From contig CAYQPQ010000001.1 of assembly GCA_964420045.1 (NCBI GenBank), forward strand, positions 21,444 to 85,443: a stretch of DNA of 64,000 bases, given 5' to 3'. Shown here one piece after another: positions 1,070 through 50,233 of this stretch; within the stretch, counting starts at the first letter, position 1; each line of letters opens with the position of its first letter. Below the pieces are notes generated by a model, which worked only from the letters and a program-made list of their open reading frames with translations, was not told where the DNA came from and did no database searches. A program made the position numbers and the translations under genes. This DNA is from an uncultured Bdellovibrionales bacterium. Lineage in GTDB: Bacteria > Patescibacteriota > Minisyncoccia > Moranbacterales > UBA1568.

Positions 1070-1159
1070 TGGCGGAAGGGGTGGGATTCGAACCCACGGT
1101 ACCGTTGCCGGCACAACAGTTTTCGAGACTGTCCTATTCGACCACTCTAGCACCCTTCC
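1070..1159 (-). tRNA. tRNA-Ser (anticodon CGA). It is a type II tRNA with a long variable arm, and the 3' CCA is genomically encoded.
   Basis: The reverse complement reads GGAAGGGTG...ACAGT-CTCGAAA-ACTGT...GTGGGTTCGAATCCCAC-CCCTTCC-GCCA. There is a 7-bp acceptor stem, a 5-bp anticodon stem with a 7-nt loop CUCGAAA (anticodon CGA), and a GTTCGAATC T-loop. The ~18-nt variable arm is typical of Ser. Confidence 0.85.
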
Positions 1160-2958: not shown

Positions 2959-3018
2959 ACTGTTTTTGTTGAGAATGTGTAAAAATTTCAAATCAATGAA
3001 GCCAGCAGAGCATTTCTA

Positions 3019-3290
3019 GAAAAATTGTTTTTTGCGGCTTTCCTGTCCGCATTGCTACACAGAGCGCTACGGGCGGACATACAAAGCGCAAGACAAGCAG
3101 GAAATAATTTTTCCGGAAAAGCGACATCTGGCATGGTCTTAGAGTGTGTCTAAAAAGGCTGTTTTTCCGAAAGAAATTCTTTTTTGTTTGTCTTACACTT
3201 CGTACGAAAGCCGCAAAAAAAGAATTTCTTTCGGAAAAGCGGTTACATTGTGCAGTTTTGTAGAGCTCTTAGACACCTTCTTAGAGATTC
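3019..3290. repeat. Nested inverted-repeat block made of two family-2 hairpin elements in opposite orientation, plus extra palindromes (GTGTCTAA ... TTAGACAC).
   Basis: Region 3019-3120 and its inverted partner at 3158-3240 share arms GAAA(A)ATT(G/C)TTTTTTG / CAAAAAAGAATTTCTTTC and a core GTCTTACACTTCGTACG. These match the elements at 41941-42060 and 43010-43105. They lie in the 480-bp gap between the pyk start and the DUF4870 gene. Confidence 0.6.
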
Positions 3291-4815: not shown

Positions 4816-5015
4816 ACGTTCTGATTGTTCGGCGTATCAGCTTTCAGCCTCTTGTCATTTCGACCGAAGCGGAGAAATCCCAATGCTCGTCAAAGAGACC
4901 AATCAACCTATAAGATAAGAAACGATCTCGAATCACTGTGACATCCCGAGATCCCTCGACTTCGCTCGAGATGACAGAAAATACAACAAGCAAAACAAGC
5001 AAAAAGGGTGGAAAA

Positions 5016-12024: not shown

Positions 12025-12726
12025 TTACTGGTCACTTCTGTCGGTACATACACGCGCATGATTTTCTCGCACCCCAAGAATCCAATGGATAGAGAGAAAG
12101 ATCAGATACGACACGCCAATGCCCACCGAGAACACCAATGAAATCGCCACCGCGCGTGCGAACCACACCGGATCACCATAGTGCGATACCGTATCGCGAA
12201 ACACAAGAAAAGGATTGAGAAACACGTCCCAACTGTTCCACCGAAGAAATCGCCCAAGATACACTCCGACTCCCGAAAGCAGAATCACCGCAGCAACAAT
12301 GCCCTGCGCCAAGGCGCGCCCCAGTGTTTTCCGAAGCGCACGATGCACCCGAAAGAGCGCGCCCAGACCAAAGAGAAGTCCCGCGAGAGCAAACGCAGCA
12401 ATAAGCAAGAAGTCATACGCAAAGCTTTTCGATCCGGCATACTCCCACGGGAGATGTACAAAATCGGTGACAATATACGGCGCATTCGGAAAAAAGAACA
12501 GCCACAGCAAGAAGACTCCCCACAAGCCGCCCGTCATACGCGCTTCCTTCCCGGCATACCACTCAAACAACACCGCTATCGCATATGGTATCGCCGCCAA
12601 AAGCAAATTCCAGAGCAGAAAAAAATATCCGTCCGTCCCCGCCACAAACATCCGCACCGCCAACAACAAAAACGCCCCCGTCAGCGAGAGATTGAGCATT
12701 ATCAAAAAGATATTTCTCCGCGACAT
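12025..12726 (-). CDS. DUF1361 family integral membrane protein.
   Basis: Multiple TM helices and the conserved NAPYIVTDFVHL motif. Confidence 0.6.
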   Translation of the reverse strand: MSRRNIFLIMLNLSLTGAFLLLAVRMFVAGTDGYFFLLWNLLLAAIPYAIAVLFEWYAGKEARMTGGLWGVFLLWLFFFPNAPYIVTDFVHLPWEYAGSKSFAYDFLLIAAFALAGLLFGLGALFRVHRALRKTLGRALAQGIVAAVILLSGVGVYLGRFLRWNSWDVFLNPFLVFRDTVSHYGDPVWFARAVAISLVFSVGIGVSYLIFLSIHWILGVRENHARVCTDRSDQ

Positions 12727-12754
12727 ATCAAAAATTCCCTCAGAACCTGTTTAC

Positions 12755-12955
12755 AATCCCCTTATTCTACTCCGACTTTCAAACTTTGGCTGCAAAACAT
12801 TCATATTTCGTCGGGTTACTCTCCGAGTAGTCCTCCCCGTCCGCAACACTTCGCGTAGCGATACGGGTGGACTCAATCTTCATGTTTTCCAGCCTACCGG
12901 CAGGCAGGTCGCTCAAAATTTGAAAGTCTCGTAACGAAAGAGAGATTGTAAGCAG
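12755..12955. repeat. Divergent hybrid copy of the family-1 161-bp repeat, with insertions.
   Basis: Shares TTTGGCTGCAAAACATTCA(T/G)ATTTCGTCG, CAATCTTCATGTTTT and GCTCAAAATTTGAAA with copies at 24625 and 48831. It carries an extra palindrome CCGTCCGCAACACTTCGCGTAGCGATACGGG. It also carries the CCTACCGGCAGGCAGG core of repeat family 2. Confidence 0.5.
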
Positions 12956-13079
12956 ATTCTCAACAAAGTACCGAAAAATATACCATAGAAGTAGAATACT
13001 GTCTATTTCCGAAAATCCAAAAACCTTGAGAGAAGATGTTTTTTTCTTTACAATAGAAACAAACTTTCCAGAAAACCGT

Positions 13080-23976: not shown

Positions 23977-24159
23977 GAGAATATTGTATAATAAGCAACG
24001 AACAACTGACAACAAGACCAGTAATGGGTAGAGGTGGCTAGCTAGGCATTCTATCTTCCACTTTCCATATCATTAACGATTGAGATTCCTCCGCTCCGGT
24101 CGGAATGACAGGAGACATTCGTCTGTATTCTCGCTCCTCTCTTCCATATTCTGTCCCTC

Positions 24160-24600
24160 CTATTCCCGACTCACCACGCCAAGAGCGTTCATGGTGACTC
24201 TGCGAGAAATACTCCCTGATGAAGCAGCGAGAGTAACGGTGAGCGGAGCTGTTGGCATTCCGGAAACGCGGGCAAATACCGTTTCATTCAAGCCGCTTAT
24301 TGACACCGATGAAGGCAGAGCGACTTGCCGATCAAGTGCTGTATTCCGAGTAGCGAATGAATTACCCTGAAACAAAACGACCGCATTGCCATTGAGAGCT
24401 ACTCCCCATGGGAGACTTCCCTTCCCGGCAAGTGAATACCCTTGCGCGTTCCGAAGCGATCCCGCCACACGGTCCGCCGCCTCGGCAACCGCGTCCTGCA
24501 AAAAAAATCGACCGTAGAAAGCCGGCGCAAAACCGGCAATAACAAAGAAGATCGCCACAACGAGGAGGAGTTCGATGACCGTAAATCCGCGAGAAGCCAT
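24160..24600 (-). CDS. Type IV pilin-like (pseudopilin) protein with a prepilin N-terminal cleavage/methylation domain.
   Basis: N-terminus MASRGFTVIELLLVVAIFFVIAGFA, the class III signal G-F-T-x-I-E. Confidence 0.6.
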   Translation of the reverse strand: MASRGFTVIELLLVVAIFFVIAGFAPAFYGRFFLQDAVAEAADRVAGSLRNAQGYSLAGKGSLPWGVALNGNAVVLFQGNSFATRNTALDRQVALPSSVSISGLNETVFARVSGMPTAPLTVTLAASSGSISRRVTMNALGVVSRE

Positions 24601-24624
24601 GAGAAGTCAAGAAAAAATGTCTGG

Positions 24625-24785
24625 GAGCTTGTCTTAAAAGTCCGTATTCTGCTGCAATTTCAAAATTTTGGCTGCAAAACATTCAGATTTCGTCGCGTTA
24701 CCTTCCAGGTAGCACTCCTCAATCTTCATGTTTTTCGCTCAAAATTTTGAAATTTCGCGACGAAAGAGACTTTTAAAACAAGCTC
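24625..24785. repeat. Family-1 161-bp MITE-like repeat with 18-bp terminal inverted repeats, copy A.
   Basis: TIR GAGCTTGTCTTAAAAGTC ... GACTTTTAAAACAAGCTC. It matches 48831-48991 with one mismatch and has internal palindromes (ATTTCGTCGCG/CGCGACGAAAT, CAAAATTTTG). It sits 25 bp upstream of the pilin-like gene start. Confidence 0.7.
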
Positions 24786-24805
24786 TGAGAGATGAAAGTT
24801 CCGCA

Positions 24806-27388
24806 TTAAATTTGCCACTTGTCTTCTTGGGTATCGCCCATTGACATTTCCTCGCTCTCCGCATTGGATACGTGGTCATCATGATCAACAGAAACATGAG
24901 CTGGCGAGTCGCCGGGAGCCGAACTACCTCCTAAAGCAAGAATATCTCGAGGCTTGGATCCGTCTTTGGGACCGATGACGCCGTTCTTCTCGAGACAATC
25001 AATAATCTTCGCGGCACGGGAGTATCCGAGACCCATGCGCCGCTGAAGAAACGAGGTAGATGCCTGGCGAAACTCAAGAACCACCTGCCGAGCTTCTTCA
25101 TAGCGAGGATCCTGATCCTCTTCCAAGTGTTCCTCATCGTCAAGTGAAAAGACAATGCCGTCAGAGAGCTTTTCCGGGTGCGCAAACGAGTCCGTATCGG
25201 GACCGACCGGAGCCGCTTCAAGGTCGCCATTTGCCCGAGGAAGCGAGGGGAGAGCGAATTCTCGCTCTCGTATCGGAGAATTCACGGTTACCTCTCCATC
25301 AATCGATTCCTCAAAACCGGCTGCTAACTTCTGCTCGCGAATAAACTCCACCACATTGCGCACCTCGTCTTCGGAGACAAACGGTCCCTGAATTCGTCTC
25401 GGCTGAGGATATCCGGCAGTCGTAAAGAGCATATCGCCCTGCCCGATGAGCTTCTCGGCACCCCCTTGATCGAGAATGGTGCGAGAATCAATCTGCGTCG
25501 CCACTTGAAACGCGATGCGCGTCACAATGTTTGCCTTGATAAGTCCGGTAATCACCTCGACGCTTGGCCGCTGTGTCGCCAAAACCAAATGAATGCCCAC
25601 GGCACGCGCCATCTGTGCCAAACGCACAATGACGCCTTCCACTTCCCTTCCGTGAGACATCATGAGATCCGCCATCTCATCAATGACAATGACAATGTAG
25701 GGAAGCTTGGGCAGATCCTCCTCACGATGACCGCCGCCGGGCAATGGCACGGTTCGCTTTTCCCCGCGAGCGCACCGAACATGATAGGACTCAATATCTC
25801 GCGACCCCACCTGCTCCAAGAGTTTGTACCGACGATCCATCTCGCCCACCATTGATCGAAGCGCATTCACCACCTTCTTCGGTTCAACGATTACATCGGT
25901 AATGAGATGTGGTATGCCATTGTAGAGCGAGAGCTCCACGCGCTTCGGATCAATAAGGATAAGACGGAGATCATCCGGCGCATTCTGATAGAGCAAGGAC
26001 AAGAGAAGTGCGTTTACAAAAACGCTCTTCCCGCTTCGTGTTGTCCCGGCAACCAGCAAGTGTGGCATCTTCCCGATATCCGCAACCGCATAGTCGCCAT
26101 GCACATCCTTCCCCAGAGCAACCGTAAGTGGAGAGTTTCGCTTGAGAAACGCTTGGCTTTCCAAGATATTTCGAAGCCGAACAATAGCCTGCACCTGATT
26201 GGGCACCTCAATGCCGATGAGCGACTTCCCCGGAATCGGCGCCTGTATGCGAATGGAAGGTGCCGCCATAGCAAGTGCGAGATTGTCCGAAAGCGTCGTA
26301 ATACGCGAGAGCTTCACGCCACCCGCGGGACTAAACATATACTGCGTCACTGTTGGCCCAACCATGGTTGCGTGGTGCACCACCGGAATACCGAAATTCT
26401 CAAGTGTCTGACGAATGATCTCCGCGCGAGCCTCCGTATCTCCCCCAAATCCCTCCTCGCTCGACGTATCCAGAAGATCCGGCGTCGGCAATTGCCAGAA
26501 TGTTCGTTTCCTCGAGGATCGACGCGGCGCCACCACAAAGGGCTTTCGCTCGCCGGAAAGAAAGTATGCTGGAACCGATGCGAGTTCCGAGTGTTTTTTC
26601 ATATCAGACGTCTTTCCTGTCGCAGACTCTTCATCGTTATCTTGCGGGAAGTGAATATGCTTGATATTCTCCTGTTCCAGTTTCTCTTGCTCGGTAACCA
26701 CCGGGTCAACCGCAAGCACATCCATTCCACTTCCGGCACTTGGCGATGCCGGCTCGTCAGTATGAGAAGTTTCTTCCCCTTCACCCCCCGCATCCTTTTC
26801 GGCAGAAGACGATTGATCCAAATCTCGCCGCTTTGTCCACTCGCTGAGCGAATCCGAAAACTGAAGCAATGAAAAATTAAATGCCGCGAGAACCCCGATA
26901 AGAAAAAGTGCGACAAACAAAATCGTACCGCCTATTGTCCCGGCAAGTTTCCCAAAAAGTATCGCGAGTCCGAATCCGATATACCCCCCGCCCTGACCAT
27001 TCATGGCGAGTTGTTCCAAATTACCGCTCTGGAAGGAGTGTAGAAGTCCCAAGAAACTCAAGAAGGCAACGGAAAGCCCTCCAAGCTTCACCACATCCGA
27101 CCACGAACTCGTCCGACGACGAAAGAGAAAAATACCAGCAAGGAAGAGCAAAAAAGGAAATATCCACTTTCCCCAGCCCAAGCCGAGTCCCGCCATTCGG
27201 TCAAAAAACGTCCCGAGCATTCCTGCGCTTTTGAAAAACCCAAGCGCAAAAAGAATGCCAAGCGTAAAAAGAAAGACTGCGGCAATGCTTCGTTTCACGT
27301 CATGATGAAGAATATCCGAAGACTCTTTGACCTCCGCCTCCTCATCAATATCTTGATCGATTTCTTTTGTTTTCTTTTTTCTTCCCAT
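24806..27388 (-). CDS. ftsK: DNA translocase FtsK/SpoIIIE.
   Basis: N-terminal TM helices, a linker, the motor domain with Walker A (GTTRSGKS), and a C-terminal gamma (winged-helix) domain. Confidence 0.9.
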   Translation of the reverse strand: MGRKKKTKEIDQDIDEEAEVKESSDILHHDVKRSIAAVFLFTLGILFALGFFKSAGMLGTFFDRMAGLGLGWGKWIFPFLLFLAGIFLFRRRTSSWSDVVKLGGLSVAFLSFLGLLHSFQSGNLEQLAMNGQGGGYIGFGLAILFGKLAGTIGGTILFVALFLIGVLAAFNFSLLQFSDSLSEWTKRRDLDQSSSAEKDAGGEGEETSHTDEPASPSAGSGMDVLAVDPVVTEQEKLEQENIKHIHFPQDNDEESATGKTSDMKKHSELASVPAYFLSGERKPFVVAPRRSSRKRTFWQLPTPDLLDTSSEEGFGGDTEARAEIIRQTLENFGIPVVHHATMVGPTVTQYMFSPAGGVKLSRITTLSDNLALAMAAPSIRIQAPIPGKSLIGIEVPNQVQAIVRLRNILESQAFLKRNSPLTVALGKDVHGDYAVADIGKMPHLLVAGTTRSGKSVFVNALLLSLLYQNAPDDLRLILIDPKRVELSLYNGIPHLITDVIVEPKKVVNALRSMVGEMDRRYKLLEQVGSRDIESYHVRCARGEKRTVPLPGGGHREEDLPKLPYIVIVIDEMADLMMSHGREVEGVIVRLAQMARAVGIHLVLATQRPSVEVITGLIKANIVTRIAFQVATQIDSRTILDQGGAEKLIGQGDMLFTTAGYPQPRRIQGPFVSEDEVRNVVEFIREQKLAAGFEESIDGEVTVNSPIREREFALPSLPRANGDLEAAPVGPDTDSFAHPEKLSDGIVFSLDDEEHLEEDQDPRYEEARQVVLEFRQASTSFLQRRMGLGYSRAAKIIDCLEKNGVIGPKDGSKPRDILALGGSSAPGDSPAHVSVDHDDHVSNAESEEMSMGDTQEDKWQI

Positions 27389-41940: not shown

Positions 41941-42060
41941 AAGAAAATCGGCTGAGCTCTTCTGGAGAAATTCTTTTTTGCGGCTTTCCTACCTACCGGC
42001 AGGCAGGCGTACGAAGTGTAAGACAAGCAAGAAAAGAATTTTTCCAGAAGAGCGGGCTTG
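41941..42060. repeat. Family-2 hairpin repeat in forward orientation, downstream of the convergent nrdG and znuB genes.
   Basis: GAGAAATTCTTTTTTGCGGCTTTCCTACCTACCGGCAGGCAGGCGTACGAAGTGTAAGACAAGCAAGAAAAGAATTTTTCCAG. It is the reverse complement of 43010-43105. Confidence 0.65.
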
Positions 42061-42958: not shown

Positions 42959-43009
42959 AGAAAGAGGGTGCCAAGCAAACTTCGCAAGAATAGAAACGTG
43001 AACATGTTT

Positions 43010-43105
43010 CCGGAGAAAATTCTTTTTTTGCTTGTCTTACACTTCGTACGCCTGCCTGCCGGTAGGTAGGAAGGCCGCAGAAAAAAGAATTTTCTCCGGA
43101 AAAAC
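43010..43105. repeat. Family-2 hairpin repeat in reverse orientation, lying intercistronically between znuC and znuB.
   Basis: CCGGAGAAAATTCTTTTTTTGCTTGTCTTACACTTCGTACGCCTGCCTGCCGGTAGGTAGGAAGGCCGCAGAAAAAAGAATTTTCTCCGG. The terminal arms form a perfect long hairpin. Confidence 0.65.
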
Positions 43106-43130
43106 AGTCTTTCAGAAACATTCATAAACA

Positions 43131-48089: not shown

Positions 48090-48818
48090 TTATTTTCCGT
48101 AACTCGTAGCTATCACCACAAACTCTCCCTTCACCTTCCCTTGGTTCTTCTGATAATACTCCAATACTTCCGCAACGTTTCCGCGGATGATTTCTTCGAA
48201 CATCTTGGTAAGCTCGCGTCCGACAATCACGTGTTTTTCGGGCGCGAGCGAAGCCAAGAGTTCCAAATTCTTCACGATGCGATACGGAGACTCGTAATAC
48301 ACAACTGGAACTGCCGATTCCGCAACCGCGCGAAAAAATGTCTCTCGTCCCTTCTTGTGCGGCGGGAATCCCTTGAAGCAAAATTCCTGCGTGTTCACAC
48401 CGGCGACCGAGAGAATGGCTCCCAAAGCCGATGGCCCTGGCACAGGAGAAACGCGAAAACCCGCCGCAATCACCTTTTCTACCAGCTCATTCCCCGGATC
48501 CGACACGCCCGGTGTCCCGGCATCGGTCGTAAGCGCGACAGACTTTCCTTCGCCGAGCAGATCGAGCACGCGACGATGCTTTTCTTCCGCCGCCCGCTGC
48601 GGAACAGCAAGGAGCGACTTTGATATATCATGCCGAAAAAGAAGTTTCTTGGCAACACGCGTGTCCTCGCACACGATCAGATCGCACTCGCCGAGAATGC
48701 GGAGCGCACGAAGCGTGATGTCTTCCATATTTCCAATAGGTGTTGCCACTACGAAGAGTGTCCCCGATTCAGAATTCTCCTCATCTTCTCTTTGAATTTC
48801 TTCTTCAAAATCATTCAT
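48090..48818 (-). CDS. rsmI: 16S rRNA (cytidine1402-2'-O)-methyltransferase.
   Basis: ...LFVVATPIGNMEDITLRALRIL...LIVCEDTR... is the tetrapyrrole-methylase fold typical of RsmI. Confidence 0.88.
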   Translation of the reverse strand: MNDFEEEIQREDEENSESGTLFVVATPIGNMEDITLRALRILGECDLIVCEDTRVAKKLLFRHDISKSLLAVPQRAAEEKHRRVLDLLGEGKSVALTTDAGTPGVSDPGNELVEKVIAAGFRVSPVPGPSALGAILSVAGVNTQEFCFKGFPPHKKGRETFFRAVAESAVPVVYYESPYRIVKNLELLASLAPEKHVIVGRELTKMFEEIIRGNVAEVLEYYQKNQGKVKGEFVVIATSYGK

Positions 48819-48830
48819 ATTTTTCCCTTA

Positions 48831-48991
48831 GAGCTTGTCTTAGAAGTCCGTATTCTGCTGCAATTTCAAAATTTTGGCTGCAAAACATTCAGATTTCGTC
48901 GCGTTACCTTCCAGGTAGCACTCCTCAATCTTCATGTTTTTCGCTCAAAATTTTGAAATTTCGCGACGAAAGAGACTTTTAAAACAAGCTC
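48831..48991. repeat. Family-1 161-bp MITE-like repeat, copy B.
   Basis: Matches 24625-24785 with a single mismatch. The two track ORFs overlapping the two copies end in the same peptide. It lies 13 bp upstream of the rsmI start. Confidence 0.7.
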
Positions 48992-49016
48992 TTACATGCC
49001 ACTCTCCTTATTGTCA

Positions 49017-50048: not shown

Positions 50049-50233
50049 ACGAAAACACTCGAAATGTATTATCCGTGTCATTCCGACCAGAACGACGGAG
50101 GAGTGGGGTGGAGGAATCTCCGAATAGCACGCATGAAAGCTCTGAGAAACAAACTCCGCAGTTGAGATTCCTCGACCTCGCTCGGAATGACAGAACTCTG
50201 TCGACCCGAGCCTCAGCACATTCAAATATCCAA

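Follow-up and report, generated by a model that had tools for sequence, protein, structure and literature searches.

The 64-kb stretch of DNA analyzed here, referred to as the window, belongs to a member of the Moraniibacteriota; its rsmI and its acetate-CoA ligase gene both have their nearest named homologues under that name. It harbors three copies (A, B and C; Table 1) of an intergenic element whose left ends face an N_methyl pilin-like gene (24160-24600), a TP_methylase/rsmI gene (48090-48818) and a DUF1361 gene (12025-12726), respectively. The right ends of copies A and B face the stop codons of an FtsK and an AI-2E transporter gene, each co-directional with the gene on the other side of the element. 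Once the element and its duplication are subtracted, the spacers measure only 41 bp (copy A) and 34 bp (copy B), and hence these two copies were inserted within what are probably operons. Copy C, in turn, separates two divergent genes, one for DUF1361 (start 12726) and one for a cyclophilin (start about 13026). A preliminary description of this DNA had reported two near-identical 161-bp copies with 18-bp terminal inverted repeats and a third, divergent one, all in the same orientation and immediately 5' of minus-strand start codons. Most of this holds: copies A and B differ at a single position (A at 24638, G at 48844), all three copies read in the plus orientation, and their left ends lie 12-24 nt from the respective start codons. 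The third copy is indeed diverged and carries insertions, but the limits given for it (12755-12955) were wrong and the label of hybrid does not apply, since it represents a second subfamily interrupted by two nested insertions. The intact, 161-nt form of this subfamily was found outside the window (L018:505-665; L numbers designate loci elsewhere).

Table 1. Coordinates of the element copies, their flanking trinucleotides and the nested modules in the window.
Feature	Position	Strand	Remarks
Copy A	24625..24785	+	161 nt, termini GAGCTTGTCTTAAAAGTC; between FtsK stop (24806) and pilin-like start (24600)
Copy A, left flanking trinucleotide TGG	24622..24624	.	imperfect partner of TGA 24786-24788
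Copy A, right flanking trinucleotide TGA	24786..24788	.	
Copy B	48831..48991	+	161 nt; between AI-2E transporter stop (49017) and rsmI start (48818)
Copy B, target-site duplication TTA, left	48828..48830	.	
Copy B, target-site duplication TTA, right	48992..48994	.	
Copy C	12743..12959	+	217 nt, second subfamily, termini GAACCTGTTTACAATC
Copy C, target-site duplication TCA, left	12740..12742	.	
Copy C, target-site duplication TCA, right	12960..12962	.	
36-nt GC-rich module in copy C	12837..12872	+	absent from intact relative L018
20-nt GC-rich module CCAGCCTACCGGCAGGCAGG in copy C	12889..12908	+	splits conserved TGTTTT/TCGCTC

The 22-nt core motif of the element occurs three times in the window, against an expectation of zero derived from 100 shuffles, and a search with a profile built from 13 variants found no further copies in these 64 kb. 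The element has no coding capacity and, at 161 nt, falls below the size of about 300 bp that delimits MITEs (miniature inverted-repeat transposable elements). Its sole small open reading frame, of 31 codons on the minus strand of copy A, was considered as a candidate gene and rejected, as it is interrupted by stop codons in L005 and L004 and its conservation is at the nucleotide level, without a codon pattern.

In order to identify relatives of the element, species-representative genomes were scanned for the core motif, yielding five true copies and one chance match. The true copies all reside in genomes of the candidate phyla radiation (two Moraniibacteriota, one Magasanikbacteria and one Kerfeldbacteria), and the sixth hit, in an alphaproteobacterium (L006), is a chance 22-mer match within a coding region. 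A metagenome scan with the core pattern added twelve more loci, and one further copy (L022:3379-3539) was recovered without that pattern, through a profile search of DNA fetched for another reason. Altogether, about ten sequence variants of the family were distinguished, at 16 sites where insertion occurred independently. No copies were found on plasmids (blastn) or viral contigs (core pattern). Near-identical copies occupy different loci, within the window as well as in other assemblies. At five loci (L001, L009, L013, L017 and L019) the assembly breaks inside or beside the element, as a multi-copy repeat disrupts short-read assemblies. In a diverged copy (L008:2261-2418), the upstream DHH-family open reading frame (1283-2347) extends 87 nt into the element, so that the 3' end of this gene, stop codon included, may have been replaced by the insertion.

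Terminal inverted repeats are present in all variants. In copy A they span 18 nt, with 17 of the 18 positions complementary (GAGCTTGTCTTAAAAGTC versus the reverse complement GAGCTTGTTTTAAAAGTC), and across the family the termini read GA(G/A)C(C/T)TGT(C/T)T, as exemplified by GAACCTGTTTACAATC in copy C and L018, GAGCCTGTCTGAAAAC in L003 and GAGCTTGTCTTAAAAG in copies A and B. Taking as flanks the three bases on each side of GAGC...GCTC, perfect 3-bp direct repeats were found at 7 of the 16 independent insertions: copies B and C in the window (Table 1), L002, L003 and L017 (TAA), and L013 and L018 (TTA). A perfect duplication is absent from the other nine, in five of which the two flanking trinucleotides differ by a single base. 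The flanks of nearly all copies conform to T-N-A (TTA, TAA, TCA or TGA). Since these repeats are direct and not complementary, they constitute duplications of the target site and do not simply prolong the inverted repeat.

The insertions are also polymorphic at orthologous sites, which are empty in L024, L029 and L020-L027. Comparison of the empty site in L024 ('ttttccTTAggtttg') with the filled site in L022 ('ttttccTTG[161]TAAggtttg') places the insertion with base precision and reveals a net gain of 164 bp, equal to the 161 bp of the element plus 3 bp; neither flank of L022 (TTG, TAA) reproduces the lone TTA present where the element is absent. Similarly, the empty site in L029 ('aatccTGAacaataaagtacc'), which presents a single TGA, aligns to the base with the site of copy C in the window ('attcccTCA[217]TCAacaaagtacc'). 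Six relatives have no element in the AI-2E/rsmI spacer, where copy B sits in the window; in three of them this spacer is only 15-19 bp long.

A candidate autonomous partner was identified in the complete Moraniibacteriota genome CP064989.1. This insertion sequence (IS; L028:16041-16888) is 848 bp long and flanked by a TAA/TAA duplication, and its two termini both read GAACCTGTTTACAATCT, 17 nt that are identical to both ends of the intact second-subfamily copy at L018 and match those of copy C at 16 of 17 positions. Its one open reading frame encodes a 260-aa protein that matches the NCBIfam model for IS5 family transposases (NF033580) with 242 bits, the cut-off being 110, and that contains the Pfam domains DUF4096, DDE_Tnp_1 and DDE_Tnp_1_2; its homologues are named only 'IS5 family transposase'. 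The IS was found by chance in fetched flanking DNA after a dedicated search had failed: neither the first 19 loci nor the window contained pairs of terminal repeats 0.7-2 kb apart, and no transposase gene is present in the 64-kb window. In two related ISs (transposase identity 73% and 69%), both with TTA duplications, the termini are GAGCCTGCTTACAATCT / GAACCTGTTTACAATCT and GAACCTGTTCAAGATCT / GAGCCTGTTCAAAATCT. The G/A difference at the third position that distinguishes the subfamilies of the element is thus also seen within a single IS, from one end to the other. No IS with the exact termini of copies A and B (GAGCTTGTCTTAAAAGTC) was found. Beyond the termini, the interior of the element presents no similarity to any of four IS sequences and, on this comparison, it is not a deletion derivative of any of them. 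Genome CP064989.1 carries a second, different IS5-type IS (L028:8929-9900), adjoining an acetate-CoA ligase gene, with termini resembling GAACCCATATCGAATACC and two overlapping reading frames (DUF4096, then DDE_Tnp_1), which is either frameshifted or uses programmed frameshifting.

The IS1031 subgroup of the IS5 family prefers 5'-TNA-3' targets and generates exclusively 3-bp repeats (PMC12016507; see also PMC2516522). One of its members, ISLrh from Lacticaseibacillus rhamnosus, has the terminal inverted repeat GAACCTGTCTAGTATCT (PMC12016507), which the termini of the element match at 9-10 of the first 10-11 nt; the terminus GAACCTGTCT of ISLrh (PMC12016507) corresponds to GAACCTGTTT or GAGCCTGTCT in the element. 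The TNA target and the exclusive 3-bp duplication are likewise shared, and the partner IS, with its 848 bp and a transposase of about 260 aa, is of a typical size; its assignment to the group relies on these hallmarks and NF033580 rather than on ISfinder classification. The element differs from these ISs in lacking a transposase, in measuring only 161 bp and in having an unrelated interior.

We are therefore confident that the element is a non-autonomous, non-coding DNA transposon, that is, a miniature inverted-repeat transposable element (MITE), of the IS5 family with IS1031-group hallmarks. The preliminary description had proposed a MITE-like element, perhaps recently mobilised, and the target-site duplications, the empty orthologous sites and the matching autonomous IS bear this out. 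Judging from the shared termini, the MITE would be mobilised in trans by an IS5 transposase. Its 17-18-nt terminal inverted repeats would serve as binding and cleavage sites for an enzyme made elsewhere, presumably of about 260 aa with DUF4096 and DDE domains and encoded by an IS of about 850 bp, and cut-and-paste transposition into TNA trinucleotides would duplicate 3 bp. The element is an ordinary kind of selfish DNA. Its occurrence in these tiny-genome bacteria is apparently undescribed so far: in the titles and abstracts retrieved by full-text search for MITEs in the candidate phyla radiation or Patescibacteria, no such element appears.

The closest eukaryotic counterparts are Tourist-type MITEs such as mPing, which belong to the PIF/Harbinger superfamily, the eukaryotic relatives of IS5, and which are short, non-coding and trans-mobilised, with short terminal inverted repeats, 3-bp TAA/TTA duplications and a tendency to insert near genes. 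The element resembles them in its short length, lack of coding capacity, short inverted repeats, 3-bp TAA/TTA duplications and insertion near genes. Unlike them, it is bacterial, targets TNA rather than strictly TWA, is a hairpin throughout and has a core that is more conserved than its termini, which is unusual for a MITE.

The internal palindromes that had been read as consistent with a folded RNA are real, but they form the two arms of a single imperfect hairpin that encompasses the whole element, with 87-nt arms that are 71% complementary. When both strands are folded, each yields one long hairpin (z-scores of -7.8 for the plus and -9.0 for the minus strand). In an alignment of 13 variants, 93.5% of the cells form standard pairs, and 36 of 58 pairs are altered on both sides, a number reached in none of 500 shuffles and well above the maximum of 18 in slid controls. 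This covariation, found in the termini, the middle stem and the apical hairpin, reflects compensatory changes that have preserved the hairpin. An alternative pairing from the preliminary description, of ATTTCGTCGCG with CGCGACGAAAT, would give a 10-bp helix in copy A and was discarded, as it is lost in L005, L004, L009 and L011. In all 15 variants folded, the minus-strand RNA is 6-20 kcal/mol more stable than the plus-strand RNA, an advantage that stems from the conserved mismatches, which are G.A or purine-rich on that strand, and not from wobble pairs.

Within the hairpin, a nearly invariant core (TTTTGGCTGCAAAACATTCAGATTTCGTC on the left, CTCCTCAATCTTCATGTTTTTCGCTCAAAAT on the right) includes fixed positions that do not pair. 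The 125-nt interior is unrelated to the IS, and its central core is conserved in Moraniibacteriota, Kerfeldbacteria and Magasanikbacteria copies alike. This conservation is in part imposed by the retrieval, for which core patterns were used. At unforced core positions, however, divergence between the subfamilies of copies A and C, compared by eye, is about 7%, versus about 30% elsewhere in the element, and the Kerfeldbacteria and Magasanikbacteria variants preserve the same core amid quite different termini and stems, both of which argue against the invariance being wholly an artefact of retrieval. Individual insertions, on the other hand, do not preserve it. The only copy found without the core pattern, L022, has four substitutions in the core and two outside, and copy C carries its 36-nt and 20-nt insertions within the core region. 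We read this as the usual pattern of mobile elements, in which lineages that keep the core go on spreading while inserted copies decay. Given this decay, which extends to the core, and the splitting of copy C, the selection that maintains the core most likely acts on the element lineage and not at each host locus, and the core would probably serve the element rather than the site where it lands. Its role may be to aid mobility, for instance by bringing together the ends of so short an element, or it may make insertions tolerable.

A bolder reading takes the core, of about 60 nt, as a functional structured RNA or single-stranded DNA module, with a 20-bp stem bearing a fixed 2x2 loop, a bulge and a purine/pyrimidine-rich internal loop, carried on a MITE chassis whose termini are re-fitted to whichever IS5-type transposase is available. 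Such re-fitting to the local transposase would account for the persistence of the same core in copies assigned to three candidate phyla despite the turnover of the termini. We consider this reading unlikely; were it true, the core, far from being filler, would be a mobile RNA or DNA device or would enhance the transposition of very short elements in cis.

The two GC-rich modules nested in copy C recur elsewhere in the window. A module related to the 36-nt one lies at 3043-3078, inside a different repeat family, and the 20-nt module CCAGCCTACCGGCAGGCAGG is also present at 41988-42007 and 43051-43070; a 16-mer core was counted three times and a 34-nt pattern twice, each against zero expected. 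The two modules read CC(T/A)(A/G)CCTACCGGCAGGCAGG and CC(T/C)GTCCGCA-N12-GCG(A/C)TACGGG(T/C)GGA, and a module site was also noted at L018:3937. Both modules are nested in both repeat families, occupying an identical apical position in the second, one copy of which has neither module. This second palindromic, MITE-like family, of about 70-105 nt and with ends TTTTCCGGAGAAAATTCTTTTTT...AAAAAAGAATTTTCTCCGGAAAA, has members at 41955-42053, 43007-43112, 3005-3110 and 3160-3228, two of which flank, one on each side, the ABC-3 permease gene in an operon of the znuA type. Between ABC_tran and ABC-3, the spacer measures 172 bp in the window and 2-6 bp in relatives L021, L028 and L029, which indicates that these copies are also insertions. 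Small REP-like hairpins of the type GTCATTCCCGCCTTCGCGGGAATGAC were observed 3' of genes, both in the window (4946-4977, 24080-24111 and 50162-50193) and in relatives (L020:9840-9965, L024:9965-9995 and L026:3255-3285). In several relatives such hairpins occupy the AI-2E/rsmI spacer, the site of copy B in the window, so that different small elements have landed there repeatedly.

The position of the window copies, just 5' of three minus-strand starts and in one orientation, had suggested a mobile promoter or 5'UTR cassette, with the element supplying the promoter or leader of the gene downstream of its left end, or else a cis-regulatory RNA, and several copies elsewhere also lie 17-52 nt 5' of a start codon. 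Yet orientation relative to genes is mixed across the 16 independent insertions, which matches the grounds on which the preliminary description itself would have its reading refuted. The element is read in plus sense at L005 (EF-Tu then S10), L015 (integrase then S16), L002 (5' of a methyltransferase) and L022 (between two co-directional genes), the reverse of the orientation to the downstream gene seen in the window, and in minus sense at L008 (DHH then GT2) and, within their operon spacers, at copies A and B. Sense does not apply to copy C and L004, which lie between divergent genes, or to L003, which lies between convergent genes, past a terminator-like hairpin. The neighboring genes are unrelated (pilin-like, rsmI, DUF1361, EF-Tu/S10, integrase/S16, methyltransferase, GT2 and DUF2339). 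A scan of 24100-25000 for promoters and terminators detected no sigma-70-like promoter on either strand and one terminator-like site, inside the pilin-like gene. That copies end up so close to start codons is a consequence of the shortness of the spacers and of an A+T-rich TNA target: any insertion into a co-directional spacer of 34-41 bp will adjoin a start codon. The decay of copies after insertion, through the core substitutions of L022 and the nested insertions that split copy C, also speaks against such a cassette, and we regard a promoter or leader function as very improbable.

The strong covariation could instead point to a mobile structured non-coding RNA, acting in cis or in trans, in which the asymmetric core is an RNA motif and the stems are under selection at the RNA level; the non-Watson-Crick positions retained in the core (the 2x2 loop, the bulge and an internal loop of 5-7 nt) and the better folding of the minus strand could be taken in the same sense. 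A DNA palindrome, however, yields the same covariation, and wobble pairs, which would be expected to reveal the RNA strand through asymmetry, show no bias (20 cells on the minus versus 23 on the plus strand). The element has no Rfam match at the gathering threshold, permissive thresholds returning weak, structure-only matches to long-hairpin families, and the only Rfam match in the window at the gathering threshold is a tRNA gene (1073-1159, minus strand). Mixed orientation to flanking transcription, unrelated neighbors, the excess of core substitutions in L022 and the interrupted core of copy C add to this, leaving a mobile structured RNA with scant probability. Finally, as an intergenic, palindromic and multi-copy sequence in genomes that contain other small REP-like hairpins, the element might be a REP/BIME-type palindrome that owes its spread to recombination or to a RAYT (IS200/IS605-like Y1) transposase instead of a DDE transposase. 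We consider the probability of this negligible, given that it has defined terminal inverted repeats which it shares exactly with an IS5-family IS of the DDE type, that 3-bp duplications flank it, that filled sites are longer than empty ones by the element plus 3 bp, and that its length of 161 nt far exceeds a REP unit.

Returning to an IS5-type MITE, its effects on the host may be considered by analogy with the Correia elements of Neisseria and the ERIC elements of enterobacteria. These are intergenic palindromes of 100-160 bp that are co-transcribed and form long RNA hairpins, with a conserved centre in ERIC; they duplicate TA, and to our knowledge no matching transposase is known for either. 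The element shares with them an intergenic palindrome with a long hairpin, and differs in having no sequence similarity to them, in duplicating 3 bp at TNA rather than TA, and in possessing a matching IS. Once inserted, it probably behaves much as they do. Given their location in operon spacers, copies A and B should be co-transcribed, which would bring a hairpin with a stability of about -56 to -73 kcal/mol into close 5' proximity of the next start codon, and any effect of this predicted hairpin on processing or translation in the host would be a by-product.

Genomes of the candidate phyla radiation, of about 1 Mb, are usually called streamlined. The presence of a recently active MITE inside 34-41-bp operon spacers, only a few nucleotides away from start codons, means that selfish DNA still moves there. 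For genome annotation, the element explains why assemblies of these organisms break at its sequence and cautions against taking such hairpins for regulatory RNAs, and the pair formed by the MITE and its IS offers a clean system in which to study trans-mobilisation.
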